From: Octopus vulgaris
Taxonomy: Eukaryota
DNA: 64,000 nt
Reading direction: 5' to 3'
NCBI GenBank assembly: GCA_951406725.2
Contig: OX597825.1
Span: 39,680,001 to 39,744,000 of the forward strand
Positions 8,693-61,735 of this stretch are shown piece after piece. The notes under the pieces are model-generated. The model made no database searches, was not told the DNA's origin, and was given only the letters and a program-made list of their open reading frames with translations. Positions within the stretch are counted from its first letter, which is position 1; each line of letters begins with the position of its first letter. The translations under genes were made by a program, and so were the position numbers.

Positions 8693-9950
8693 CGAGGGGC
8701 GTTCAATAAGTAATGCCTCTGACCCACTTCCCATAGCAGTAGAGCAACGAAACTTGGCACAGCTATTAGTCTTTTTCTACATGGGAACCACCCAGAGATA
8801 CGCATTTCTCCCATCGTTTGATGCGGATCTGGAGACCATTTTTGTAGAAGAACCCAGCTTGGTCCTCCAACCTCAACGTGACTTCAGAAATCAAGGCTGC
8901 ATCATCTGGGAAACGCTTTCCTTTCAAAAACAACTTCATGACTGGGAAGAGGTGAAAATCAGAGGGTGCAAGGTCAGGAGAGTAGGGGAGATGGGGAGGA
9001 GTTCATAGCCATACGCCTGTGCTTCTGATCTGGCGACAAGCGAGTTGTGGACCGGTGCGTTGTCCTGCAGGAGGAGGATGCCTTTGCTGATCTTGCCCCG
9101 CCTCTTGATTTTGATAACTTCTCTTAATTTCCTCAAAAGTGAAGCATAATAGGCTCCTGCAATTGTGGTAACCTTTGCCAGGAAATCTGTCAACACTACT
9201 CCGTCCTGGTCCCAGAAGACAGTGAGCATGACCTTGCCAGCGGAGGGCTGCACCCTTGCCTTCTTTGGAGGGGGTGAGTCACGGTGCTTCCACTGCATTT
9301 ACTGGGCTTTGGTCTCTGGATCATCGTGATGGACCCAGGTTTCATCCTGTGTAATCAGTCTTTTGAAAAATTTTGACTCATCTTCTTGGCACATCTCCAA
9401 ATTCATCCTCGAGCACTCGACGCCTTCTTGCTTCTGGAAAGGCGTGAGCAACCTGGGAATCCATCTGGCAGACACGTTTTGCATATGCAAATGGTCATGA
9501 CCTCATGGGCTATTTGGCGAATAATTATGCGTCGTTCTTCCAAAATGGCAGCCTCAACTTGACGGACAGATGCCCCATCAATGGCAGAAGGGGGGCGACC
9601 AGATCTGGGAGCTGTTTCCACAGAGTTCCGACCATGTTTGAATTCACGATGCCAGCGTTTTACAAGGTCATATGATGGGGCATCATCACCATAAGTTACT
9701 TTCATTTCATCAAAAGTCTCCCGTGGTGTGCGTCCTTTCAAATACAAAAACCGGATCACTGCTCGACACTCAACAGGCTCCATTTCACACTTGACTCGGT
9801 TCAAACACCTGTAAATCAAAAACCACAATTAATTCAGAGCTGTAATTTGCCACTTAATTTATAGAAATATAAACGATCGTACATGCAAAATTTCATTTAG
9901 GTCAATCAACTGCAAGCGGGTCAGAGGCATTACTTATTGAACGTCCCTCG
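8693..9950 (-). mobile_element. Full-length mariner (DD34D) transposon with TIRs and TA target duplication; transposase disrupted
   Basis: TIRs CGAGGGGCGTTCAATAAGTAATGCCTCTGACCC and GGGTCAGAGGCATTACTTATTGAACGTCCCTCG, flanked by TA at 8691-92 and 9951-52. Motifs: WIPRLL, ITQDETW, LLQDNAPVH, YSPDLAPSDF. Confidence 0.95.
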
Positions 9951-14815: not shown

Positions 14816-17340
14816 GAGAACGAACAACCAAAAAAGGAGTATTAAAACAACAAACTCAGCATCTGAGCAACTTTGGACCCCCATAACAACTGAAGAGGTC
14901 ACCCAGGCATTGCAAAGACTAAGCAAGGCACCTGGATATGACAAGATCCCCAACGTCTGGTTGAAATATCTAACAAGAATGCATAAAAAGCTGACTGAAA
15001 AATTTAACAACATACTGGCAGAGCCAGAGACAATGCCTGAATGGCTCACGAAGGGGAAAACCATCTTAATTCCCAAGTCAAACGAGACAGCAAAACCAGA
15101 AAACTAAAAACCTATAAACTGTCTCCCTACAATGTACAAAACATTTACTGCAGTGATATCACATAGATTGAACAAGAACCTGGACGAAAACAACATGTTT
15201 CCAGAAGAGCAGAAAGGATGCCGCAAAGGCTCATATGGCTGTAAAGATCAACTAGTGATCAATAAAGACATAACTGAAGACAGCTACAGAAAGAAGAAAG
15301 GCATCAGTATGGCCTGGATCGACTACAAAAAGGAGTTTGATACCATCCCAGACACACGGATCCTCGAAACACTAGCCATTAACAAATTTGTACCAACATT
15401 TATAAAATACATAGGACACTCTATGAATAAATGGCAGACAGTGCAACAGCTCCAAACAAAAAAGGGACTTGTGAAAACCAAACCATCCCCATTAGAAGAG
15501 GGATATTCCAGGGAGACACGCTCTCTCCACTCCTTTTCTGCTTGGCACTGTCACCTGTATCTCATATGCTAAACAGAACTGGATGCGGATATACAGGTTA
15601 CGGCAAAACGATCAGCCACATTTTATATATGGGTGACCTAATACTATACGCCACAAATGACAAACAGCTGGAAACACTATTAAAGACAGCTCATGGATTT
15701 ATCAAAGAAATAGATATGAAATTTGGATTGGAGAAATGCGCCAAAGTAACACTGAAAAGAGGAAAACTAGTTAAGAGTAGCAACATCACACTAGTTAAAA
15801 CCAATGAAATAAAAGTATTAGACCAAAGCCAAACTTACAAATACTTAGGAATCCATGAACTAGATAAGACACAACACACACAAATGAAAGAGAAAATGAA
15901 AAAAGAATATTACAGACGAATTAGAGCAATACTGAAAACAGCTCAATGCTAAAAACAAGATAATAGGTATCAGCACTTTAGCCGTCTCAGTTATAAGTTA
16001 AAGCTACAATATCCTTAACTGGACACTAAATGAACTGACCAAAATAGATAGGAAAACAAGAAAAATAATGACAGGATCTAGGATGCATCATCTGACATAG
16101 AAAAGCTATCTATACAACGTATAGAAGGTGGTAGAGGCCTTATACAGTTGGAAAACCATTATAAAATAACCACCATAGGACTGTAAAAATATCTACTTCA
16201 GAAGGAAGGTAAACTGATACAAATAGCGGCAAAACACGAGCAAAACAATAAACTGTTCTCAGTATTTAAAGAAGCTGACAAATAGAAACAAGAATTCATA
16301 CCACCTAACAAATAGAAAGAAGAAGAAGAAGAAGAAGAAGAAGAAGAAGAAGAAGAAGAAGAAGAAGAAGAAGAAGAAGAAGAAGAAGAAGAAGAAGAAA
16401 CAACAAAAGCTATAAAACAAATGAAATCCAAATTAAAAATAGAACAGCAATGAACTATGATAAAACGATGACAAGAAAACCCCTTCATGGCAAATACTGG
16501 ACTAAACTAAATGCATAAGAAATAGACAAAGAAAAATCCCAGCAATGTTTGAGAAGCACAGGACTCAAAGCAGAGACAGAAGGATTTTTAATTGCAGCAC
16601 AAGACCAAAGACCCCACCCCACCAGAAATTATCAAAAACATGTAATGAAAAGAAATATAACAAGTAACCGCAGTATATGTGGAGATGGACAAGAAACAAT
16701 AAATCATATTATCTCTGGCTGCCCAGTCCTGGCTAAGAAGGAATATATTCACAGACATGAAAGGATCGGGACCTATATACACTGGAATCTATGCCAACAT
16801 TATGAAATAACAACAGAAAAAAGGTGGTATAGGCACACACCAGAAAAGGTCACAGAAAACGAGAAAGCAACCATACTCTGGGATATGCCAATACACACAG
16901 ATAGAGAAATTAAGGCCAACAGACCAGATATAGATATCAGAGATCATGAAGAAAATGATGCTTTCTAAATGATATATCCATACCAGCAGATGACAACGTG
17001 TCTCTAAATGAAATGGAGAAACTTTCAAAATACAAAGACCTGGAAATAGAGGTAACCAGAATGTGGAGTCTAAAAACAGAAACAATTCCTATCATAATAG
17101 GTGCATTAGGCATGATTAATAAAATATTCAGACAAATACATAACAGAAATACCAGGACTTACAAACACATATAACATATAGAAAATTGCACTACTAGGCA
17201 CTTCACACATCCTCGCAGAACACTTTCAATACAGTAACCATCAGAACATCACAACAAATCACAGCACATACCCAAGGCACACAGAACTGCGCTCGGTAGT
17301 GAAGTGAAAACACGTTATAAAAATAAAACTCCTGAATGAT
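14816..17340 (+). mobile_element. 5'-truncated RLE-type LINE (R4/Dong-like): RT + CCHC knuckle + restriction-like endonuclease, tail into (AAT)n
   Basis: KAPGYDKI, EEQKGCRKGSYGCKDQL, AWIDYKKEFD, RRGIFQGDTLSPLLF, LYMGD (YMDD), FGLEKCA, YKYLGI, C..ETINHIISGC, RH, WD, RPDI. The 3' UTR ends AAAATAAAACTCCTGAAT followed by (AAT)n. Confidence 0.9.
16319..16399. repeat. (GAA)n expansion inside the LINE ORF
   Basis: About 27 perfect units. Confidence 0.95.
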
Positions 17341-19368: not shown

Positions 19369-19464
<96 letters not shown>

Positions 19465-19503
19465 AAAAAAGGTTTGAAAATGCAATTTAAACGATGTTTA
19501 TTT

Positions 19504-19544
19504 ACTTAACCGGTTTCACTCTTTGGTAAAAGATTGTCAAAAGT
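19504..19544 (-). ncRNA. Decayed minimal hammerhead ribozyme in the PLE 3' end
   Basis: ACTT-TTGACAA-TCTTT TACC AAAGA-GT-GAAA-CCGG-TT-AAGT. Stems are intact and the core is two transitions away from CTGACGA. Confidence 0.6.
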
Positions 19545-20085
19545 TACATTTAAGGAAACATTGAATAATATGGGTTCAAAAAAAGTTTTTTACATAATTG
19601 TCACATTGAATATTATGCATTCAAAAATGTTTTTTATACATAATTGTCACATTACATGTATAAATATAGTGTTTGGTAACAGAGAAGTTCAATAGTGTGA
19701 TGAGAATATTTGGGAAAATTTGGCAGAAAAGGATAAAACAAATATATTATTGGGAATTGGTTGCGTTAATTATTGGTTGTCGCAAATTGTCACATTACAT
19801 GTATATATATACAATCTTTGGTATATATATACAGCCTTTTGACAGCAAAAATTAAAATGGATTTTTTATACATCTCAGAATATTTTAAGTACAAGGCGAG
19901 AATATGTTTTTACTGACCTGTCGGTATTAGCAGAAAGGCTGAACTGAGAGAACAGAGGAAGTAGCCAATGTGGTGTATACTTCCCTTTATGCATGAATGA
20001 TTTTGGGGTTATCAGGAGGTTAGTATGCGGGTGTGAATAGATGTGTCCGTGCCTGCTGGTCAGATAGCGTCTGTTTGTCACACAC

Positions 20086-20122
<37 letters not shown>

Positions 20123-20307
20123 ACAACACACACACACGCATAGTAAACAAACACACACCACATACAAACAACACATACACACACACAGAACACACACACC
20201 CACACACAACGCACCCACATATATCACATATACACACAGCACACAAATATAATATGTATCTATATATAACATACACAGATATATAACACACATACACACA
20301 CAACACA

Positions 20308-20340
<33 letters not shown>

Positions 20341-21224
20341 CACACGCACACATACATACATAATATAAATATCACACAAATACACCTAGCATATATATAC
20401 ACACATACAATACACACATACAGCATGTAAGTAATATACATACACAATATATGCATGCAATATACATACGCAGTACATACATATAATATATATATAGACA
20501 ATGCATATACATATATACACATACAGCATGTAAGTAATATACATACACAATATATGCATGCAATATACATACGCAGTACATACATATAATATATATATAT
20601 ATATAGACAATGCATATACATATATACACATATACATATAAATAGTGTTTACATACACATACATAGATGTACACACATATACACACAATACACATACATA
20701 CAATGCATACACATACACGTACGCATACATATAATATATATATACACACACACACATAACATACATACACAATGCATACATATATATACACGCAATGCAC
20801 ATACATGTATTCATGCATATATAGCACACCTACAATATACATATATACAATGCACACATACACACACACCCGCACACAGTGCACACACACACACACATAT
20901 ATACACACGTGCTCACACACACACACAACGCGCGCGCACACACACATATACACACACACGCACACAGTGCACACACACACACATATATATATACACCCAC
21001 GCACACACACACACAACGTGCACACACACACACACACAACACTCACACACATACATCACCTACATATATATAATGCATGCATGTGCATGCCACGTATGTG
21101 TGCGGTCAATGCCCGCTAGTGTGTCCTATGCGTGCCGATGCGCGCATGTGCCCGCCCGCACGATATGCTGTGAGCGTGCACGCGTCCCTGTGTGCTTGCT
21201 CTGGATGTGTTTCCAGGGGGTATG

Positions 21225-21524
21225 TTAGAGTATGTTTAGTTGTGGTCTGTATTTTTGAATAAGATTACTTTCCTTATTTATTCGTGTTTGGTTTGTGGTG
21301 TTGTCCGAGCATTGATATAGTGGGAAGACTAAGAATTTGGGGGACTTATTGTGTGCACAAAGGTCTAAGTGTCCACTTAGTGGTATCTGTCTTGTGGAGG
21401 GGTCCCTCAGTTGTTGTCGGTGAACTGTCATTCTGTCTCTGAGGGTAAGGCTCGTTTGCCCTATGTAGTCTTCGTGGCATCCTTCACACCTTATGACGTA
21501 GAGTAAATTTTTTTTGATGCGCAC
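21225..21524 (-). pseudogene. PLE GIY-YIG endonuclease
   Basis: LLYVIRCEGCHEDYIGQTSLTLRDRMTVHR...RINKESNLIQKYRPQLN. Confidence 0.9.
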
Positions 21525-21755
21525 GTGAAATTATTTTTTATGATGAATGTGTGTCCCGAGTGGAACTTGTACGACGATCCCTCAATGAGGTGGATGCAGG
21601 TCTTGCAGTTGGGGCGACCACATTTTTTGATGGTGGGCGGTGGGTTTGTGTTGTGTAATTTTGCGTTGGTGAGGAGGTTTTTTAGGGATTTAGGTTGTCT
21701 CTTACTTTTTATTATTTTATGAGCTGCCAGTATTTTTTCAGGCGTGGGTCTTGAT

Positions 21756-22777
21756 TTAGTTGTGGAATGTTGTTGTATATAATAGTGTAAGCTTCTGCAT
21801 TCCTTGGGTTGTGTGTTGAGAGATAAGGAGGCTATTGACTGTACTGTGGATGTGTTTGGGTTTTCGAAGGTCTTGAATGTTGATTGATTTGGCCCGTTCT
21901 ATTCCGTTGTCTACTAGTGATGCCGGGTAATGTCTTTCGAGAAGAATTGCCCTTAGTTCCCGGAGTCTTCTATTTCGTATTGTGTCATTTGAGACAATAG
22001 TGCAGATTCTTCTCGCTACGTTGAAGGGGATATTTGTCTTTGTGTGTTTTGGGTGATTGGAGGTGAATAGAAGGTATTGTTTAGAGTCAGTGGGTTTGTA
22101 ATGGATGTCAGTTTCAATGTTGACGCCTTTTTTAATGATTAGGATGTCAAGAAAAGGGAGTTGGTCCTGACTATATTCCATTGTGAATTGAATGTTGTTA
22201 TTTACACTGTTGATAAGGTTTTTGAAGTATATAAATTGGTCGAGTGTGTGGGACCATAGGATGAGGCAATCATCTAAGTAGCGTTTCCAGTTCTCCAACA
22301 GGTATTTGTGGAAAGACTGGCCGTACTTATATTTGGATTTTTCATAGATATGTGATTCCAGGTAGGCCATCGCCAGGTTTGCATAGGTAGGTGCAACTTT
22401 CGTACCCATTGCAGTTCCTGAGACCTGTCTGTAAGTGTTGTTGTGGAAATACATGAAGTTGTTTTGCAGAATAAATTTGAGGCCCTCAATTATGAATTCA
22501 TTTTTAATTCTTTCCGGGATCTCATTGGGATATTTATCCAGCCAGAATTTAATGGCTTCCAGTCCAAATTCATGTGGGATTGTGGTGTAAAGATTAATAA
22601 CATCAAAAGAAACGATTAAGGTGTCTTTATCGGCATGTTTGGGGAGATGGTTTAATAGGTCCAGGTCATCTCTTACAATACTTGGAATGTGTTTCAGTAT
22701 TGGCTTTAAGATGATATCTATAAAGTTGCTAAGTCTGTGTGTTTCACAACTTGGGCCTGCCACTATTGGTCTCAGTT
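21756..22777 (-). pseudogene. PLE reverse transcriptase, N-terminally truncated
   Basis: 335-aa ORF with intact RT core motifs including YLDD. Confidence 0.9.
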
Positions 22778-22813
22778 TATATATATATATATAATTAATA
22801 TATATATATATAA

Positions 22814-22867
<54 letters not shown>

Positions 22868-23158
22868 AATATATATATATAATTAATATATAATTAATAT
22901 ATATATATAATTAATATATAATTAATATATATATATAATTAATCAATATAGGGTGGCAAAAAATTTCGTAGAATTTTTTTGCCACCAGCGGCCTAGTGGG
23001 AAAAAATTAAATAGTCATAGACCATTTGTAAATTCAACAGCAAAATCAAGGAACGGCCATAATAGGCCATTCACCCACTAGAAATAACAGGCAAAGCTTC
23101 AACCGCAAAACAACATTAATTCCGCAAACCAGGAGAAAATTAAAACATTTACCCTGTA

Positions 23159-23264
23159 GTTCCTTATACGATGACCGTTTCATCTATTGTTTAATGGTAA
23201 ACTAACCTGATTAAATTAAATCAAGCTAGTCTTCCATAGGCCGATAGATTCGTCAGTAAAGAAC
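23159..23264 (-). ncRNA. Type I hammerhead ribozyme (array 1, inverted arm)
   Basis: Same as 23781-23887 with a 1-nt deletion in stem III (CGGTCATCG). Confidence 0.8.
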
Positions 23265-23780
23265 AGCCAGATCGGAGCAGATAATTACACGAGGCACTTC
23301 TATCACTGTCTCGGCAACATCTGACCTAAAATTTTCAAATCATCGCACTCGCGCCAAATTTATCGGCAGCAAATATAAGCCGCCGATTCCATTACGGAAT
23401 TAACCAGAAAATTCATAATTAATCAATATAGGGTGGCAAAAAATTTCGAAGAATTTTTTGCCACCAGCGGCCTAGGCGGCTGGTGGCAAAAAATATGACC
23501 TATTGTGGGCGTTCCTTGATTTTGCTGTTGAATTTACAAATGGTCTATGGCTATTTAATTTTTTCCCACTAGGACGCTGGTGGCAAATAAATTCTACGAA
23601 ATTTTTTGCCACCCTATATTGATTAATTATGAATTTTCTGGTTAATTCCGTAATGGAATCGGCGGCTTATATTTGCTGCCGATAAATTTGGCGCGAGTGC
23701 GATGAGTTGAAAATTTTAGGTCAGATGTTGCCGAGACAGTGATATAAGTGCCTCGTGTAATTATCTGCTCCGATCTGGCT

Positions 23781-23887
23781 GTTCTTTACTGACGAATCTA
23801 TCGGCCTATGGAAGACTAGCTTGATTTAATTTAATCAGGTTAGTTTACCATTAAACAATAGATGAAACGGTGCATCGTATAAGGAAC
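23781..23887 (+). ncRNA. Type I hammerhead ribozyme (array 1, unit 1)
   Basis: GTTCTTTA-CTGACGA-ATCTAT...ATAGAT-GAAA-CGGTGCATCG-TA-TAAGGAAC. All three stems pair. Predicted cut after A23879 (GUA). Confidence 0.88.
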
Positions 23888-24263
23888 TACAGGGTAAATG
23901 TTTTTTAAATTTTCTCCTGGTTTGCGGAATTAATGTTGTTTTGTGGTTGAAGCTTTGGCTGTTATTTCTGGTGGGTGAATGGCCTATTATGGCGTTCCTT
24001 GATTTTGCTGTTGAATTTACAAATGGTCTATGACTATTTAATTTTTTCCCACTAGGCCGCTGGTGGCCAAAAAATTCTTCGAAATTTTTTGCCACCCGCT
24101 ATTGATTAATTATGAATTTTCTGGTTAATTCCGTAATGGAATCGGCGGCTTATATTTGCTGCCGATAAATTTGGCGCGAGTGCGTTGAGTTGAAAATTTT
24201 AGGTCAGATATTGCCGAGACAGTGATAGAAGTGCCTCTTGTAAATATCTGCTCCGATCTGGCT

Positions 24264-24370
24264 GTTCTTTACTGACGAATTTATCGGCCTATGGAAGACT
24301 AGCTTGATTTAATTTAATCAGTTTAGTTTACCATTAAACAATAGATGAAACGGTGCATCGTATAAGGAAC
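24264..24370 (+). ncRNA. Type I hammerhead ribozyme (array 1, unit 2)
   Basis: As unit 1. The stem II variant ATTTAT/ATAGAT keeps pairing through U-G. Confidence 0.87.
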
Positions 24371-24746
24371 TACAGGGTAAATGTGTTTTTAATTTTCTCC
24401 TGGTTTGCGGAATTAATGTTGTTTTGCGGTTGAAGCTTTGGCTGTTATTTCTAGTGGGTGAATGGCCTATTATGGCCGTTCCTTGATTTTGCTGTTGAAT
24501 TTACAAATGGTCTATGACTATTTAATTTTTTCCCACTAGGCCGCTGGTGGCAAAAAATTCTTCGAAATTTTTTGCCACCCTCTATTGATTAATTATGAAT
24601 TTTCTGGTTAATTCCGTAATGGAATCGGCGGCTTATATTTGCTGCCGATAAATTTGGCGCGATTGCGTTGAGTTGAAAATTTTAGGTCAGATATTGCCGA
24701 GACAGTGATAGAAGTGCCTCTTGTAAATATCTGCTCCGATCTGGCT

Positions 24747-24853
24747 GTTCTTTACTGACGAATCTATCGGCCTATGGAAGACTAGCTTGATTTAATTTAA
24801 TCAGCTTAGTTTACCATTAAACAATAGATGAAACGGTGCATCGTATAAGGAAC
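24747..24853 (+). ncRNA. Type I hammerhead ribozyme (array 1, unit 3)
   Basis: As unit 1. Predicted cut after A24845. Confidence 0.88.
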
Positions 24854-24998
24854 TACAGGGTAAATGTTTTTTTAATTTTCTCCTGGTTTGCGGAATTAAT
24901 GTTGTTTTGCGGTTGAAGCTTTGGCTGTCATTTCTAGTGGGTGAATGGCCTATCATGGCCGTACCTTGATTTTGCTATATATATATATATATATATAC

Positions 24999-28981: not shown

Positions 28982-29385
28982 ATCATCATCATCATCATCA
29001 TCATCATTTAGCGTCCGTTTTCCATGCTAGCATGGGTTGGACGGTTCAACTGGGGTCTGGGGAGCCCGAAGGCTGCACCAGGCCAGTCAGATCTGGCAGT
29101 GTTTCTACAGCTGGATGCCCTTCCTAACGCCAACCACTCCGAGAGTGTAGTGGGTGATTTTATGTGCCACCGACACAGGTGCCAGACGAGGCTGGCGAAC
29201 GGCCACGCTCGGATGGTGTTTTTATGTGCCACCGACACAGGTGCCAGACGAGGCTGGCAGACGGCCACGCTCGGATGGTGTTTTTATGTGCCACCGACAC
29301 AGGTGCCAGATGAGGCTGGCGGACGGCCACGATCGGATGGTGTTTGTTACGTCCCCAAAGCACGGAGGCCAGTCTATGCGGTACT

Positions 29386-32112: not shown

Positions 32113-32151
<39 letters not shown>

Positions 32152-32170
32152 CACAAATATATATATATGC

Positions 32171-32211
<41 letters not shown>

Positions 32212-32219
<8 letters not shown>

Positions 32220-35212
32220 TAAGGGCTCCTAAATAAAGATGCCGAGTGCTGGGAACACAAAAAGGGGATGAATTTATCGAGAGTGAAAATCAAAAACGTT
32301 TACCGATAACTTTAACAACTCGTACCGCGGTTTCTGCTTCTTTCTAGCAAAACACAGAATATGTTTGCTAAGGCTGTCCTCATCAGCGAGTCGCCTGAAT
32401 TTAATCGAGGTCTGCAGCGATGTGGGGCTATATGTTAAACCCGACTGCTAGCAGATCTTAACTTTTCAAATCTCTGCGCAGACGCAAAATTTACACGGGC
32501 ATGCCGGGAAGAATTTTACGAATAAATTCATCATGTAGTATGCGAATATAAGCAAGAAGGGTAGTAATATTATTTACTACCAGGTGCCCAGCACAAAAGA
32601 CGAATTAGTCATAAGACAAAAATGTTATTCATATAGAAAAATATTATTCATGTGGTTATACAATTAAGGGCTCTTAAATAAAGATGCCGAGTGCTGGGAA
32701 CACAAAAAGGGGATGAATTTATCGAGAGTGAAAATCAAAAACGTTTACCGATAACTTTAACAACTCGTACCGCGGTTTCTGCTTCTTTCTAGCAAAACAC
32801 AGAATATGTTTGCTAAGGCTGTCTTCATCAGCGAGTCGCCTGAATTTAATCGAGGTCTGCAGCGATGTGGGGCTATATGTTAAACCCGACTACTAGCAGA
32901 TCTTAACTTTTCAAATCTCTGCGCAGACGCAAAATTTACACGGTCATGCCGGGAAGAATTTTACGAATAAATTCATCATGTAGTATGCGAATATAAGCAA
33001 GAAGGGTACTAATATTATTTACTACCAGGTTCCCGGCATGCCCGTGTAAATTTTGCGTCTGCGCAGAGATTTGAAAAGTTAAGATCTGCTAGCAGTCGGG
33101 TTTAACATATAGCCCCACATCGCTGCAGACCTCGATTAAATTCAGGCGACTCGCTGATGAAGACAGCCTTAGCAAACATATTCTGTGTTTTGCTAGAAAG
33201 AAGCAGAAACCGCGGTACGAGTTGTTAAAGTTATCGCTAAACGTTTTTGATTTTCACTCTCGATAAATTCATCCCCTTTTTGTGTTCCCAGCACTCGGCA
33301 TCTTTATTTAGGAGCCCTTAATTGTATAACCACATAAATAATATTTTTCTATATGAATAACATTTTTGTCTTATGACTAATTCGTCTTTTGTGCTGGGCA
33401 CCTGGTAGTAAATAATATTACTACTCTTCTTGCTTATATTCGCATACTATATGATGAATTTATTCGTAAAATTCTTCCCGGCATGCCCGTGTAAATTTTG
33501 CGTCTGCGCAGAGATTTGAAAAGTTAAGATCTGCTAGCAGTCGGGTTTAACATATAGCCCCACATCGCTGCAGACCTCGATTAAATTCAGGCGACTCGCT
33601 GATGAAGACAGCCTTAGCAAACATATTCTGTGTTTTGCTAGAAAGAAGCAGAAACCGCGGTACGAGTTGTTAAAGTTATCGGTAAACGTTTTTGATTTTC
33701 ACTCTCGATAAATTCATCCCCTTTTTGTGTTCCCAGCACTCGGCATCTTTATTTAGGAGCCCTTAATTGTATAACCACATAAATAATATTTTACTATATG
33801 AATAACATTTTTGTCTTATGACTAATTCGTCTTTTGTGCTGGACACCTGGTAGTAAATAATATTACTACTCTTCTTGCTTATATTCGCATACTACATGAT
33901 GAATTTATTCGTAAAATTCTTCCCGGCATGCCCGTGTAAATTTTGCGTCTGCGCAGAGATTTGAAAAGTTAAGATCTGCTAGCAGTCGGGTTTAACATAT
34001 AGCCCCACATCGCTGCAAACCTCGATTAAATTCAGGCGACTCGCTGATGAAGACAGCCTTAGCAAACATATTCTGTGTTTTGCTAGAAAGAAACAGAAAC
34101 CGCGGTACGAGTTGTTAAAGTTATCGGTAAACGTTTTTGATTTTCACTCTCGATAAATTCATCCCCTTTTTGTGTTCCCAGCACTCGGCATCTTTATTTA
34201 GGAGCCCTTAATTGTATAACCACATGAATAATATTTTTCTATATGAATAACATTTTTGTCTTATGACTAATTCGTCTTTTGTGCTGGACACCTGGTAGTA
34301 AATAATATTACTACTCTTCTTGCTTATATTCGCATACTACATGATGAATTTATTCGTAAAATTCTTCCCGGCATGCCCGTGTAAATTTTGCGTCTGCGCA
34401 GAGATTTGAAAAGTTAAGATCTGCTAGTAGTCGGGTTTAACATATAGCCCCACATCGCTGCAGACCTCGATTAAATTCAGGCGACTCGCTGATGAAGACA
34501 GCCTTAGCAAACATATTCTGTGTTTTGCTAGAAAGAAGCAGAAACCGCGGTACGAGTTGTTAAAGTTATCGCTAAACGTTTTTGATTTTCACTCTCGATA
34601 AATTCATCCCCTTTTTGTGTTCCCAGCACTCGGCATCTTTATTTAGGAGCCCTTAATTGTATAACCACATGAATAATATTTTTCTATATGAATAACATTT
34701 TTGTCTTATGACTAATTCGTCTTTTGTGCTGGGCACCTGGTAGTAAATAATATTACTACCCTTCTTGCTTATATTCGCATACTACATGATGAATTTATTC
34801 GTAAAATTCTTCCCGGCATGCCCGTGTAAATTTTGCGTCTGCGCAGAGATTTGAAAAGTTAAGATCTGCTAGTAGTCGGGTTTAACATATAGCCCCACAT
34901 CGCTGCAGACCTCGATTAAATTCAGGCGACTCGCTGATGAAGACAGCCTTAGCAAACATATTCTGTGTTTTGCTAGAAAGAAGCAGAAACCGCGGTACGA
35001 GTTGTTAAAGTTATCGGTAAACGTTTTTGATTTTCACTCTCGATAAATTCATCCCCTTTTTGTGTTCCCAGCACTCGGCATCTTTATTTAGGAGCCCTTA
35101 ATTGTATAACCACATGAATAATATTTTTCTATATGAATAACATTTTTGTCTTATGACTAATTCGTCTTTTGTGCTGGGCACCTGGTAGTAAATAATATTA
35201 CTACCATTCTTG

Positions 35213-35219
<7 letters not shown>
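32212..35219. repeat. Hammerhead-bearing 445-bp tandem array with divergent inverted arms (retrozyme-like), flanked by (TA)n
   Basis: CTGATGA at 33154, 33599, 34044, 34489 and 34934 (+) and at 32380-86 and 32825-31 (-), all 445 apart. Junction at 33030. Units differ by only a few substitutions. Confidence 0.93.
33145..33226 (+). ncRNA. Type I hammerhead-like ribozyme (array 2; repeated at +445, +890, +1335, +1780 and twice on the minus strand)
   Basis: GGCGACTCG-CTGATGA-...TAGCAAACATA TTC TGTGTTTTGCTA...-GAAA-CCGCGG-TA-CGAGTTGTT. Stem I is 9 bp and stem III is palindromic (ACCGCGGT). The base of stem II is not Watson-Crick paired. Confidence 0.75.
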
Positions 35220-35262
<43 letters not shown>

Positions 35263-39508: not shown

Positions 39509-40706
39509 CGAGGGACGTTCAATAAGTAATGCCTCTGACCCACTTGCAGTTATTTGACCTAGCTGAAATTTTGCATGTACACATATTTATATCTCTAAAA
39601 ATTAAGTGGCAAATTACAGCTCTGAACTAATTGTGGTGTCTGATTTACAGGTGTTTTAACTGAGTCAAGTGTGAAATGGAGCCTGTTGAGTGTCGAGCAG
39701 TGATCCGGTTTTTGTATTTGAAAGGACGCACACCACGGGAGACTTTTGATGAAATGAAAGTAACTTATGGTGATGATGCCCCATCATATGACCTTGTAAA
39801 AAGTTGGCATCGTGAATCCAAACATGGTCGGAACTCTGTGGAAACTCTCCAAGATCTGGTCGCCCCCTTCTGCCATTGATGAGGCATCTGTCCGTCAAGT
39901 TGTGGCTGCCATTTTGGAAGATCGACGCATAACTATTCGCCAAATAGCCCATGAGATCAAGATTAGTGCCGGGTCTTTGGAAGTTATCATTCATGACCAT
40001 TTGCATATGCAAAAGGTGTCTGCCAGATGGATTCCCAGGTTGCTCACACCTTTCCAGAAGCAAGAACGTGTCGAGTGCTCGAGGATGAATTTGGAGATGT
40101 GCCAAGAAGAAGAGTCAAAATTTTCAAAAGACTGATTACACAGGATGAAACCTGGGTCCATCACTATGATCCAGAGACCAAAGCCCAATCAATGCAGTGG
40201 AAGCATCGTGACTCACCTCCTCCAAGGAAGGCAAGGGTGCAGCCCTCCGCTGGCAAGGTCATGCTCACAGTCTTCTGGGACCAGGACGGAGTAGTGATGA
40301 CAGATTTCCTGGCAAAGGGTAGCACAATTACAGGACCCTATTATGCTTCACTTTTGAGGAAATTAAGAGAAGCTATCAAAATCAGGTTGCGGGGCAAGAT
40401 CAGCGTGTCGCCAGATCAGAAGCACAGGCGTGTTGCTATGAACTCCTCCCCCATGCCCCCTACTCTCCTGACCTTGCACCTTCTAATTTTCACCTCTTCC
40501 CAGCGATTAAGTTGTTTTAGAAGGGAAAGCTTTTCCCAGGTGATGCAGCCTTGATTTCTGAAGTCACGTCGTGGTTGGAGGACCAAGCTGGGGTCTTCTA
40601 CAAAAACGGTCTTCAGAGCTGCATCAAACGATGAGAGAAATGCATAACTCTGGGTGGTTCCTATGTAGTTAAATACTAATAACTGTGCCAAGTTTCATTG
40701 CTCTAC
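39509..40706 (+). mobile_element. Second copy of the 8693-9950 mariner family; 5' TIR intact, 3' TIR lost
   Basis: TA-CGAGGGACGTTCAATAAGTAATGCCTCTGACCC and MEPVECRAVIRFLYLKG. Similarity stops at GCTCTAC (40706). Confidence 0.93.
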
Positions 40707-40739: not shown

Positions 40740-42050
40740 TTCTGATAATTAACATGAGTTTGACGCCTGTATACCATCGTTCTCTTCTTCAAAGTCAAAT
40801 TTGACCTATGTGATCACCACCACATCTGGGTACATAAATTAAGTTCCTCGCTGATCAGTTGAAGTGATTTTATGGTGAATATTAAACCTGTCTTGCAGTC
40901 ATATGTTGAAATTCATCAGTTTGTGCAGGCTTTTCAATTACGATGGTTCATTTCTTTTACTGTTGGGGATGTATTGTCGAAGCGTAATTTCGTGTTAGTA
41001 GGTATCCATTTTAGTGATTTCGGTTGTCTGTTACTTTTAAGAATTATATTTTTCGAATTCTTTTTTCTTTTACGCAGACCTTTCATCAACAGGTGTGTAT
41101 TCAAATGGATAATGTAGTATGGTTCCATATGTCTTGAATGGGTTGTTAATACATAATGTAGATATTTAAATCTATTATGGCTTTCCTTGCTTTTTGTAGT
41201 TCGTTGATGTCTATTATTTTGGAGCGCTCTATTTCGCTATTTAGGAAACTGAGTGGGTATTGTCTTTTGAGTCATATATTTTTATGTCCTTGGCGTCATT
41301 TTTCCTGTGTTTCGGGATTGCATAAATCTTTGCAAATGATTGTTACTAAGTTAAAAATTATTGTTTTACGTGCCCTTTAAATCACAGGTAAAGAGTAGCA
41401 GATTTTCTTTTTGCGTTTGTTGCTTTAAAGTATATGTTGGTCACAATGCTAGTATCTTTTTATATGATTCGGATGTCCAAGAAATGATGGTGCGCTTGAA
41501 AATTCCATTGTTAATTGGTTACTGAAGATTATGTTATCCAATGTTAAAACTCCAAGAGAATATGCAACCAGAGATTGAAGCAGTCGGTGAGTAATTATTA
41601 TGAAAGCTATCGTCAGATTTCAATCTGACGTGTTCGTGTATTTGGATTTCTAATTGTCATGACAAGCTTTGCAGAAGTGGAGAATACAGTCGCTCTTAAT
41701 GTAGTCCCATATATTTGTCTGTAGGCGCTGTCCTTCATTTTAAAGGCTGATCTTTAATCCTTCAGTTATATACACTTAGCCAATTCGGTCAAGAATGTCT
41801 TTGGGAATTTTTTTCCATCCCGAAGTCTATAGATCGAATTCTGTATTTGTATGGAATCGAGGTGTAGCGATTTATTCGAATGGGACAAAAAGAGTGTCCA
41901 GTGTTGTTCTGGCTCGGTGGATGGTTCAAGAAGTCCAAGTTTTCTCGTACGAAGCTCGGTATATCTTTAAGTATGGGTTTTATAAGTACGTGAGTAAAGT
42001 TATTAAATTCATGTGTCTCATAGGACGGACCTGCCACAATTTTCCGTATT
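40740..42050 (-). mobile_element. Heavily decayed Penelope-like element related to 19463-22777
   Basis: AGPSYETHEFNNFTHVLIKPILKDIPSFVRENLDFLNH and ILKSNRQPKSL parallel the younger copy. Confidence 0.8.
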
Positions 42051-42059
42051 TTGATTTCC

Positions 42060-59500: not shown

Positions 59501-60794
59501 TTTCTGACTAAAATTCAATCGAACTTGCACTCCAGAAAAGGGAAAAGCACTATCATAATTTATTAGCCACTAAGTATGTTCAAATAACCGATATATTCAC
59601 CTTAATTCTATAAATGGTATGCTGGCCTTTATTTATATTAAGTATCAAATACAGAATTACTTTCTCACTTATTGATCACAACACTGGCAGACCAACGGCT
59701 GCTAAGCTGCACGGCGTTGAAAATTTTGAAAATATTTGACGGTGATGTCATTGATATTTCGTCTTATGCTGAAAACAGATGCTTGCACATCTAAAAGCGC
59801 ATAAATCAATAAAGATAGCTTTTGAATAGATTTCAAAAATATCGTGTTATATCTTCGCTTCGTGCATTAAACGAGAAACAACGTTTTCATTGTAAAATGA
59901 TATTTATCATTCCTCAGGAACTATGCTATCTTTTTGCAAACTTCATACAATATCAAAATAAGTATTATTCTTCGAAGTAAATAAACAATATTTGATGCGA
60001 TTAGAGTGTGTATTGTTATTCAACAGAAGCGGATTTGTATGAAGATACTCTATGATGTGCTACAGAAATATTTTTGATCTCTGAAGAATAGACATTTAGT
60101 AAAATGCTCGATTAGTTCTCTGCAATAATGTAGCTAGCTGACTAGAAAGCTTGGTTGTACTTTAAATATTATTTATTTTACTCTATTATTGCTTCGAAAG
60201 AAAATGGAATTCCATACCTGAGAAAATAAATAGAATCGGCTGGTTTTTTAGTCTTTTTAAAGACATATGTTTCGAAACATCTATGAATTTTAAAGGCACG
60301 TTAATAATTAAATATTTTTCTATTAACCTGGGTACAAATTATGTAATTAACAATATGATTGCAACGAATTCATCAAAAAAGCGGCATTTCTACTTCTACA
60401 TTGTCATAAGTGGAATGTGGTTAGTCTGTCTACTCACCGTCGAATGTATCTGAAATTAATCCGTAAACAAAATACAGGCTTGTGTATGATATACAAACAG
60501 ACTTGTATGTTAATATGTACCGTGAATATACGAGCAAACTTCCTACACCTAAGGTCAAAAAATATATACAAATATTAATCATTAATTCTTCGCCCATTTG
60601 AGTGCTACAGAAAATATACTTACCCGATTTCTTGCACGCATTAACAAACATACACGTTAGTAAAACTTAAAATATTCTCAAACACATATATTCTTAGAAA
60701 TAAGAATGATTTTAACGGCGATAATACACTAATATTTTTTATACTAATTTTTTAAATCAAACTAAATGAAAACCAATCTTACAGTACTTGGAGA

Positions 60795-61735
60795 AAACAT
60801 ATTGGCGATATGAGGGCGGGCCTTGTCGGGCAGCAGAAGAACTCCATGTTGTCGGTTAGGTATTTTCTCTTGAATAGCCGTGTTGAGACGTTCCCTTTGT
60901 TGAACATAGAGTTCCACGTTGACCGTTTGGTTCATTTCAAGCAATTCGTAACGGATAATCCCTTCCCAGCTCCACCATACGCACAACATCGTGTTACGCG
61001 GATGAAGACCTTCTTCCACGCATGGTGTCGCTTGTTTACCGGGGATAAGCCATTCCTTACGCTGCTTCATATTGATATACATGCACCATTTTCCGTCGCC
61101 AGTAACGATTTGGTAAAGAAATCGTTGCTTGTGTCCATGAGTAGAGTGCCTACGAGCAAGCAAACGAGCGGAGATTGTGGCTCGTTGATTTTTATTGTTG
61201 TCACTTAAAGCATGCGGAACCCATGCGCCATACTTCTGAATTTTTCTCATCGTGTGAAGATGCTTCTTTATAGCAGTGTGGGAGCATTCCATTTTCTCTA
61301 CCAGTTCTCTTGTTTGAAAAGATTTTTCGTGCAAAAGTTGGTTTGATAGCTCTTCATCGAACTCAACTGGACGGCCAGAACGAGGTGCGTCTTTGAGATC
61401 AAAATTCCCATTTTTGAACTTGGCATACCAATCACGAGTGGTTCTTTAAGCTATGGCACCCTCGCCATACACAGCACAAATGTCGGGAGCAGCATTGGCG
61501 GTCTTAGAACAATGATTACAAGCAAAATGAAGGAGGTGTCGAAAATACTCATTTGTCTTAACTTGACATTCCATTTTAATGATATGAAAATAAACAAAAA
61601 TTAACTAGAAGACAAATAGGTTCCAAAATGATTCAGAAACAGAATTCTCGAAAAAAATAGATTCCCAAATTTAAAAACGCAATCAATTCCAAATTTTAAA
61701 AAAACATACGGCGGCTGAATTATTTGCCAGCCAAA
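60795..61735 (-). mobile_element. Mariner of a second family, 3' truncated, transposase disrupted
   Basis: Start ATGGAATGTCAAG at 61574. Motifs GAWVPHALS, IVTGDGKW, MLCVWW, LLPDKARPH. Decayed TIR-like end near 61710-61737. Confidence 0.88.

Follow-up and report, generated by a model that had tools for sequence, protein, structure and literature searches.

The window (the whole stretch of DNA analysed, 64,000 nucleotides) was found to contain array 2, a tandem array of a 445-bp unit, at nucleotides 32212-35219. The array consisted of an inverted arm and a forward arm placed head-to-head between two (TA)n runs, and its units carried a predicted type I hammerhead. Unit positions were numbered from the first base past the predicted cut, so that position 1 is nucleotide 33218. 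The features of array 2, and of a second array in the window (array 1), are as follows.

32133-32215, no strand: left (TA)n target run, overlapping the arm end by TATA
32212-33030, minus strand: inverted arm, 819 bp or 1.84 units, from unit position 183 (33030) to site P at position 111 (32212)
33030-35219, plus strand: forward arm, 2190 bp or 4.92 units, from unit position 258 to site D at position 222 (35219)
33145-33226, plus strand: type I hammerhead of the first forward unit (predicted fold), with a 9-bp stem I, the core CTGATGA at 33154-33160, and GAAA
33163, plus strand: variant 391A (C in the family), in 7/7 units on both arms, disrupting the lower C-G pair of stem II
33287-33398, plus strand: predicted long-range stem CCCAGCAC / GTGCTGGG (predicted fold), enclosing site P and a small hairpin
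33316-33328, plus strand: site P motif CCTTAATTG followed by TATA, inside the predicted long-range stem
33361, plus strand: variant 144C (T in the family), in 6/6 covering units on both arms
33368-33377, plus strand: small GTC-TTAT-GAC hairpin, inside the predicted long-range stem
33402-33439, plus strand: CTGGTRG hairpin (GGTAGTAA / TTACTAC), with site D about 17 nt further on; the motif is common to array 1 and other lineages
35215-35260, no strand: right (TA)n target run, overlapping the arm end by TATAT
22940-24976, no strand: array 1, a 483-bp unit judged to be a distant collinear relative, with the inverted arm running to D (234) and the forward arm to P (131)

The CTGATGA cores were present at 33154, 33599, 34044, 34489, and 34934 on the plus strand and at 32831 and 32386 on the minus strand, with a spacing of exactly 445 bp inside each arm. 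An earlier, sequence-only reading of this DNA had described seven cores spaced 445 bp apart within arms diverging at 33030, with 1.8 inverted and 4.9 forward units, near-identical units, and (TA)n on both sides. The core positions, the arm ends, the measured arm lengths, and the two TA runs bear out this description; 14 of the 445 positions varied among the seven units, which were near-identical and not identical. Tandem Repeats Finder (TRF) gave a period of 445, 4.9 copies, and 99% matches for the forward arm. A single base was common to both arms at their junction, and no open reading frame of 120 aa or more was found within 32212-35219. Elsewhere in the window, the broken fragments at 538-1512, 15108-16968, 8936-9828, 39665-40554, and 60762-61445 were presumably derived from LINE-like reverse transcriptases (RT) and mariner-like transposases. 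A GC-rich 62-bp tandem repeat (3.1 copies) at 29153-29345 lies probably inside another repeat element.

Stem I of the predicted hammerhead contained 9 bp (GGCGACUCG / CGAGUUGUU, G-U pairs included), stem III contained 2 bp with a CGCG loop and formed the palindrome ACCGCGGT, and stem II contained an A.A mismatch at the base followed by a long hairpin. The cut was predicted after the GUA triplet ending at A33217, the position expected by the sequence-only reading, and also after 33662, 34107, 34552, and 34997 on the plus strand and after 32768 and 32323 on the minus strand. The same reading had proposed that the palindromic stem III suits cleavage as a dimer. This was supported by the computed energy of the palindrome duplex (-16.1 kcal/mol), and dimeric hammerheads, as described in the available text of PMC4209133, are in line with it, as is PMC7229834. 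Stems I and III formed in the fold prediction when the core was held open. The A.A at the base of stem II was found in all covered units of the family except for one A389G unit, and was followed by a G-C and a C-G pair, of which the latter is broken by 391A in array 2. Stem II of array 2 was thus modelled as weak, and the isolated motif gave low predicted pair probabilities in array 2 and in two family copies. A search of the window against Rfam at the gathering threshold gave no match, so the hammerhead call in array 2 rests on motif and fold. Because of the weak stem II, the low pair probabilities, and the lack of an Rfam match, self-cleavage of array 2 is predicted to be plausible at most. 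The core was nearly invariant over about 124 units of the family, save for its free position. The axolotl hammerhead HHR_Amex2 contains a mismatch at the base of helix II too (U.U there, A.A in array 2) and is described as cleaving better as a dimer (PMC7229834), and in Xenopus one of nine retrozyme dimers was reported to be cleaved in vitro (bioRxiv 10.64898/2026.07.22.740005).

The genome assembly searched for further copies contained 2.8 Gb in 227 contigs. The search with the unit gave at least 146 matches from the best 40 of 1028 candidates; an 18-mer at stem III had 138 exact matches in the assembly and a 23-mer near site P had 216. We parsed 69 loci, namely the window, 39 loci from the unit search, and 29 new ones among the first 100 listed matches of the 18-mer. 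Later, 12 further loci were parsed, giving a total of 81 on many contigs. The divergence of units was 2.5% between loci and 0.5-0.7% within a locus. A TA run was found at one or more ends in 67 of the 69 loci and at both ends in 53, compared with 323 of 3450 control 30-mers (9.4%). Thirty-five loci were two-armed and head-to-head, and 34 were classed as single-armed. The sequence-only reading had inferred a general system with a common integration mechanism, not a one-off duplication, and had held that other copies without TA flanks and inversions would speak against it; TA flanks were found at nearly all of the parsed loci and inverted arms at about half of them, and the repetition of this design across many contigs, at dozens of loci, agrees with the inference. 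As far as the DNA sequence tells, array 2 is a young insertion of a dispersed family of animal non-LTR retrozymes. Pieces of the family also occurred as contigs in independent sequencing runs, and no run listed as carrying them was recorded as RNA. Four runs guessed to be RNA contained family contigs, which shows neither expression, strand, nor ends, and in four larger independent runs no contig bridged the array 2 locus. A subfamily of array 2's family with units of 452-454 bp (L060, L064, L065, and L190-L201) was about 91% identical and had unchanged P and D ends.

The 5' ends of the arms were scattered and the 3' ends were concentrated at two sites, P and D. Of the 103 outer 3' ends of array 2's family, 31 fell at P (105-113, with a mode of 111), 55 fell at D (211-232, with modes of 222 and 229), and the remaining 17 lay at other positions; the P and D intervals that contained these 86 ends were set after the data were seen and cover 7% of the 445-bp unit. 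In array 1's family, with P at 126-132 and D at 224-234, 51 of 57 outer 3' ends were found in intervals covering 3.7% of the unit. The two ends of a locus were mostly of different kinds. Among the 35 two-armed loci, 21 had one end at P and the other at D, one had both at D, none had both at P, and 13 had one end outside the intervals. Pairing of P with D in 21 of 22 loci has P=5.5e-6 at even odds, a value against which the post hoc intervals and the 13 of 35 loci with an outside end have to be set. The 12 further loci contained four P/D pairs, no D/D or P/P pair, four loci with a non-standard or borderline end, and four single arms. The 32 loci of array 1's family contained 21 P/D pairs, no P/P or D/D pair, four loci with one other end, and seven single arms. 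In the window, the left end of array 2 was at P and its right end at D, and array 1 had the opposite order; the longer arm in two-armed loci can be either one. Both P and D were found downstream of a predicted hairpin and a CCT..TTG-like motif in array 1, array 2, and a 473-bp lineage, and the two may be equivalent sites. There were few unit differences by which P could be placed in the unit of D or in the next one. The arm ends in array 2's family showed 2-5 bases of overlap with TA. In the sole D/D two-armed copy (L065:2059-3940), the inverted arm of 35 nt looks like a short fold-back at the hairpin.

The two arrays of the window had been regarded in the sequence-only reading as unrelated, independent families with no similarity beyond the ribozyme core. 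This part of the reading did not stand. Global alignment of array 2 and array 1 units gave z=6.1 relative to 200 dinucleotide shuffles. For the two parts that lie outside the ribozyme, z was 4.5 and 3.5, above every shuffle; units had been phased on a common motif before alignment, which favours the first part. The similarity of array 1 and array 2 was undetected by local blastn. Array 2 against the 473-bp lineage gave z=5.4 and against a 492-bp lineage z=5.9, both above 200 shuffles; outside the ribozyme, five of six part comparisons beat every shuffle and one did not (z=2.1). The blocks GGTAAA (just past the ribozyme), GACTA, the CTGGTRG hairpin before D, and TTGAAAA were found in conserved order. 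A degenerate pattern of the hairpin had 3462 matches, against 1 for the reversed control. Among the loci retrieved, the matched stems paired fully in 102 of 107 cases, mostly array 1-like copies, with G-C/A-U swaps between lineages. When nine units were aligned with MAFFT, both hairpin and core were misplaced between lineages. Arrays 1 and 2 are accordingly described here, on their aligned units, as distant collinear relatives. The 473-474 bp lineage (L156, L157, L160, L163, and L164) was about 73% identical to array 1, and its P and D motifs were the same nine letters. A third lineage with a unit of about 492-497 bp (L057:1400-2070 and L150-L155) contained stem III ACCATGGT, the core CTGACGA, GACTA, and the CTGGTRG hairpin, and its ends were found directly past the hairpin.

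A 5'-truncated, frameshifted copy of a young Neptune-type Penelope-like element (PLE) family was found at 19463-22778 on the minus strand (RT frame 21756-22778), and array 1 sits in a TA run at its 5' end. The family has many intact frames of 776-876 aa elsewhere, and two more young PLE families had frames of 753 and 784 aa. All three appear to be Neptune-type by the C-terminal endonuclease and the CxxxxCxxC linker, following the criteria in the available text of PMC8557442. Among 40 stretches of these families, 18 head-to-head pairs had both ends readable, of which 17 were P/D and one was D/D. The P-D tail was about 35-48 nt in the three PLE families versus 103-118 nt in the repeats of array 2 and array 1. 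Earlier descriptions of PLE copies note a 'tail' that is often present at one end only (PMC8557442, PMC3846280), and the origin of the inverted-plus-tail structure is described in PMC8557442 as unresolved. According to the text of Frangieh et al. (PMC11167929), purified PLE protein, which is predicted to be dimeric, cuts both target strands and extends them, and it has two internal RT start sites, to which the tail has been tied; it used unprocessed RNA, ribozyme mutants left insertion unchanged, and the start site shared no homology with the cut DNA.

No sequence match of the 445-bp unit to a PLE was found in the 40 stretches of the three young families (frames of about 750-880 aa). Searching the 876-aa PLE open reading frame by tblastn against 99 array loci and the window gave only separate neighbouring fragments, and the repeat itself contained no RT or GIY-YIG open reading frame. 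PLE fragments beside the arrays in L101, L156, and L165 were considered as the partner and set aside as separate older elements. In PLE 3' UTRs, a GAAACCGGT-like motif was found about 50-110 nt before P (L076:2306-2450 on the minus strand, and the 3' regions of L170, L179, and L189). In L076 the motif comes after TTGACAA and a short stem, an arrangement that looks like a U3-A8 minimal hammerhead. Several PLE 3' UTRs contained GCATTTT shortly before P. An old, decayed PLE RT-endonuclease fragment with 30-45% identity to the young family was found at 40760-42058 on the minus strand, and in L187 (G000:C37:133239-133469, minus strand) a PLE endonuclease-linker match was overlapped by an open frame of 1861 aa.

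We consider it rather probable that array 2 was formed by a borrowed Neptune-type PLE RT/endonuclease that primed both (TA)n strands on one RNA, likely a circle. A source array would be transcribed, and the hammerhead, probably as a dimer, would free 445-nt monomers, which would be ligated into circles; circle formation by retrozyme RNAs is described in PMC7229834. The Neptune-type enzyme would nick both (TA)n strands, after which P would be primed by one 3' end and D by the other, in either case through a short UA match directly past a hairpin. Both cDNAs would then be extended toward the 5' side of the RNA for a random length, in many copies for more than one round, and their far ends would be joined, mostly via 0-3 common bases, giving head-to-head arms. 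Several observations count against parts of this proposal. No partner of array 2 was found among the three PLE families, which lacked a match to the unit and had the shorter P-D spacing. The TA overlap at the ends does not agree with the non-homologous start of purified PLE, and the weak-looking ribozyme, the single cleaved Xenopus dimer out of nine, and the use of unprocessed RNA by purified PLE weigh against a circle.

The substitution pattern within and between loci bears on the template. At 27 polymorphic sites in array 2's family, the disagreement between units was 14/997 on opposite arms, 74/2729 on the same arm, and 62296/214802 (29%) between loci; in array 1's family it was 8/710, 9/791, and 23343/54016 (43%), respectively. 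Array 2's family contained 17 rare variants that were fixed at a locus, in every unit covering the site, and 8 of them were present on both arms; the corresponding numbers in array 1's family were 20 and 17. The variant 144C had seven matches in the genome, six of them in array 2, and 391A had eight pattern matches, six of them in array 2, where the seventh unit has an adjacent change. The pair 144C+391A was found in all covering units of array 2 and in no other place in the assembly. The lone other 144C match, L190, was rejected as the source of array 2; it belongs to the 454-bp subfamily and does not have 391A. Of 101 arms, 55 exceeded one unit and 16 exceeded two, and 5' ends lay within 10 nt of the predicted cut in six, against 4.5 expected. 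A cut linear monomer copied without jumping was rejected as the template, since no pile-up of 5' ends was found at the cut. The uniformity of haplotypes and the read-through of the cut fit a single circle that was copied repeatedly. RNA circles cannot be proven by reads across the cut, because the genomic tandem has the identical junction sequence.

Private variants in only some of the units were also found, five in array 2 and six in array 1. The five in array 2 are not predicted by one monomer circle, so that homogenisation or local duplication also occurs; more broadly, local duplication, conversion, mixed template, or assembly polishing must act too, and any of these could mimic fixation. 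The two arrays of the window (22940-24976 and 32212-35219) exceeded all other loci examined in the number of private variants found in only some units, which could reflect conversion, mixed template, or assembly polishing. The same enzyme and the same two priming sites may instead have acted on an uncut linear multimer read through from the source array; long arrays and shared private variants would then come from the source or from later duplication or gene conversion, and the hammerhead would be weak or unneeded. The PLE double-priming step is common to the circular and the linear template. We regard the linear multimer as unlikely, though with a good deal in its favour: purified PLE used unprocessed RNA and ribozyme mutants had no effect on insertion (PMC11167929, available text), stem II is predicted to be weak, variants were partly shared at seven sites in two loci of array 2's family and at ten sites in four loci of array 1's family, and a homogeneous source would likewise yield uniform haplotypes. 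It is opposed by the lack of a 144C+391A source in the assembly, although such a source may have been lost, by the rare variants fixed per locus, many of them on both arms, and by a core that is almost invariant although the family is young.

The junctions bear on how the inverted arm was made. Among 51 simple two-arm junctions, 29 had an overlap of 0-3 bases, four had more, and 18 had 1-19 unaligned bases. An inverted arm made by fold-back self-priming of one cDNA, or from an antisense template, is quite improbable, even if fold-back was proposed for head-to-head Penelope structures in PMC3846280 (available text) and a few junctions resemble short fold-backs. The two arms started at most 30 nt apart in the unit at 11 of the 51 junctions, whereas about 6.8 are expected by chance, and the arm starts were unmatched at the other 40; on these counts fold-back was rejected as a general cause. 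In array 2 itself the arms start at 183 and 258. Fold-back also does not agree with the finding that either arm may be longer, and it leaves the stop of the second arm at the other fixed site unexplained. Very little credence can be given to two independent insertions in one TA run, to a simple local satellite, or to an expansion introduced by the assembly: nested insertions do gather in TA runs (L057, L101), array 2 was not bridged by a contig of the four independent runs, and the window arrays are the richest in partly shared variants, but one haplotype occurs on both arms together with P/D pairing, copies of this design are found at dozens of loci across many contigs, 14 sites vary among the units, and family sequence is present in independent runs, the unit count being as assembled.

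Priming of both strands by a Neptune-type enzyme on one circular RNA, as favoured here, can be carried a step further, albeit only tentatively. A Penelope-type RT dimer may dock on a single RNA circle at two hairpin-plus-CCT(W)..TTG sites that are equivalent, prime both nicked (TA)n strands simultaneously, and roll round the circle. If true, such docking would account for the inverted-copy-plus-one-sided-tail structure of PLEs generally. On this view, the families of 445, 473-492, and about 492-497 bp would represent a single old radiation of ribozyme circles that are recognised in trans through the shape of their RNA, and would not be recent pLTR fragments of a living PLE.

The class to which array 2 belongs is already known, both as non-LTR retrozymes and, for the inverted copy with a one-sided tail, in PLEs. 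Array 2 resembles the animal non-LTR retrozymes, as they are described in the texts of PMC7229834 and bioRxiv 10.64898/2026.07.22.740005, in the short non-coding tandem units with a type I hammerhead each, the low GC content, the dispersed dimers to multimers, the palindromic stem III, and the co-occurrence with PLEs. Its 445-bp unit compares with RNAs of 170-400 nt in PMC7229834 and with a consensus range of 51-972 bp in the preprint. In Xenopus, 24 of 57 families with TE homology match the PLE pLTR (same preprint), whereas no such match was found for array 2. The prior case for PLE mobilisation of animal retrozymes consisted of common ribozymes, co-occurrence, and pLTR phylogeny, and a PLE origin was argued from the last two by Li, Clavereau and Pollet (2026, bioRxiv 10.64898/2026.07.22.740005). 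Term searches of this preprint found no mention of tail, head-to-head, or initiation, and those of the 2020 paper (Cervera and de la Pena, PMC7229834) no mention of inverted, orientation, or microsatellite. Neither these searches nor the available text of the two papers yielded inverted arms, fixed ends, or microsatellite targets; the supplements and figures of both may bear on novelty. Among the titles and abstracts listed in searches of non-subscription literature, none was on paired fixed ends in retrozymes.

Neptune-type PLEs (Craig et al. 2021, PMC8557442; Arkhipova et al. 2013, PMC3846280) are described as having an inverted, 5'-truncated copy beside the main one, a 'tail' that extends a single end, and a microsatellite target, as in array 2. 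They differ in that array 2 contains no open reading frame and both of its arms are tandem multimers, and their tail is 30-40 bp, against 103-118 nt in repeats of the array 2 type. The Poseidon PLE of Anolis studied in vitro (Frangieh et al. 2024, PMC11167929) is similar in having two internal starts downstream of the hammerhead, cutting and extension of both strands, and an AT-rich target; it differs in its non-homologous start and its unprocessed RNA, and pairing of the two sites within one insertion is not reported in the available text.

Array 2's family is a non-coding repeat that carries the PLE footprint in a countable form, beside intact young PLEs in one genome. It leads to the prediction that both RT start sites known from in vitro work are used jointly on a single RNA, with one of them serving each target strand. 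The model can be tested with a 445-nt template, the two start sites mapped here, and three candidate enzymes. Nothing points to a host function for the family. The value of the family lies in the countable PLE footprint and in the model of one RNA with two primers, and not in a new class. In L1 twin priming, the RNA that is being copied is also primed by the second nicked strand, which produces a head-to-head inversion with microhomology at the join; the second site is variable, and the arms cover different parts of the RNA. In copies of the array 2 type, in contrast, neither site varies, and the arms overlap one another and are repetitive.
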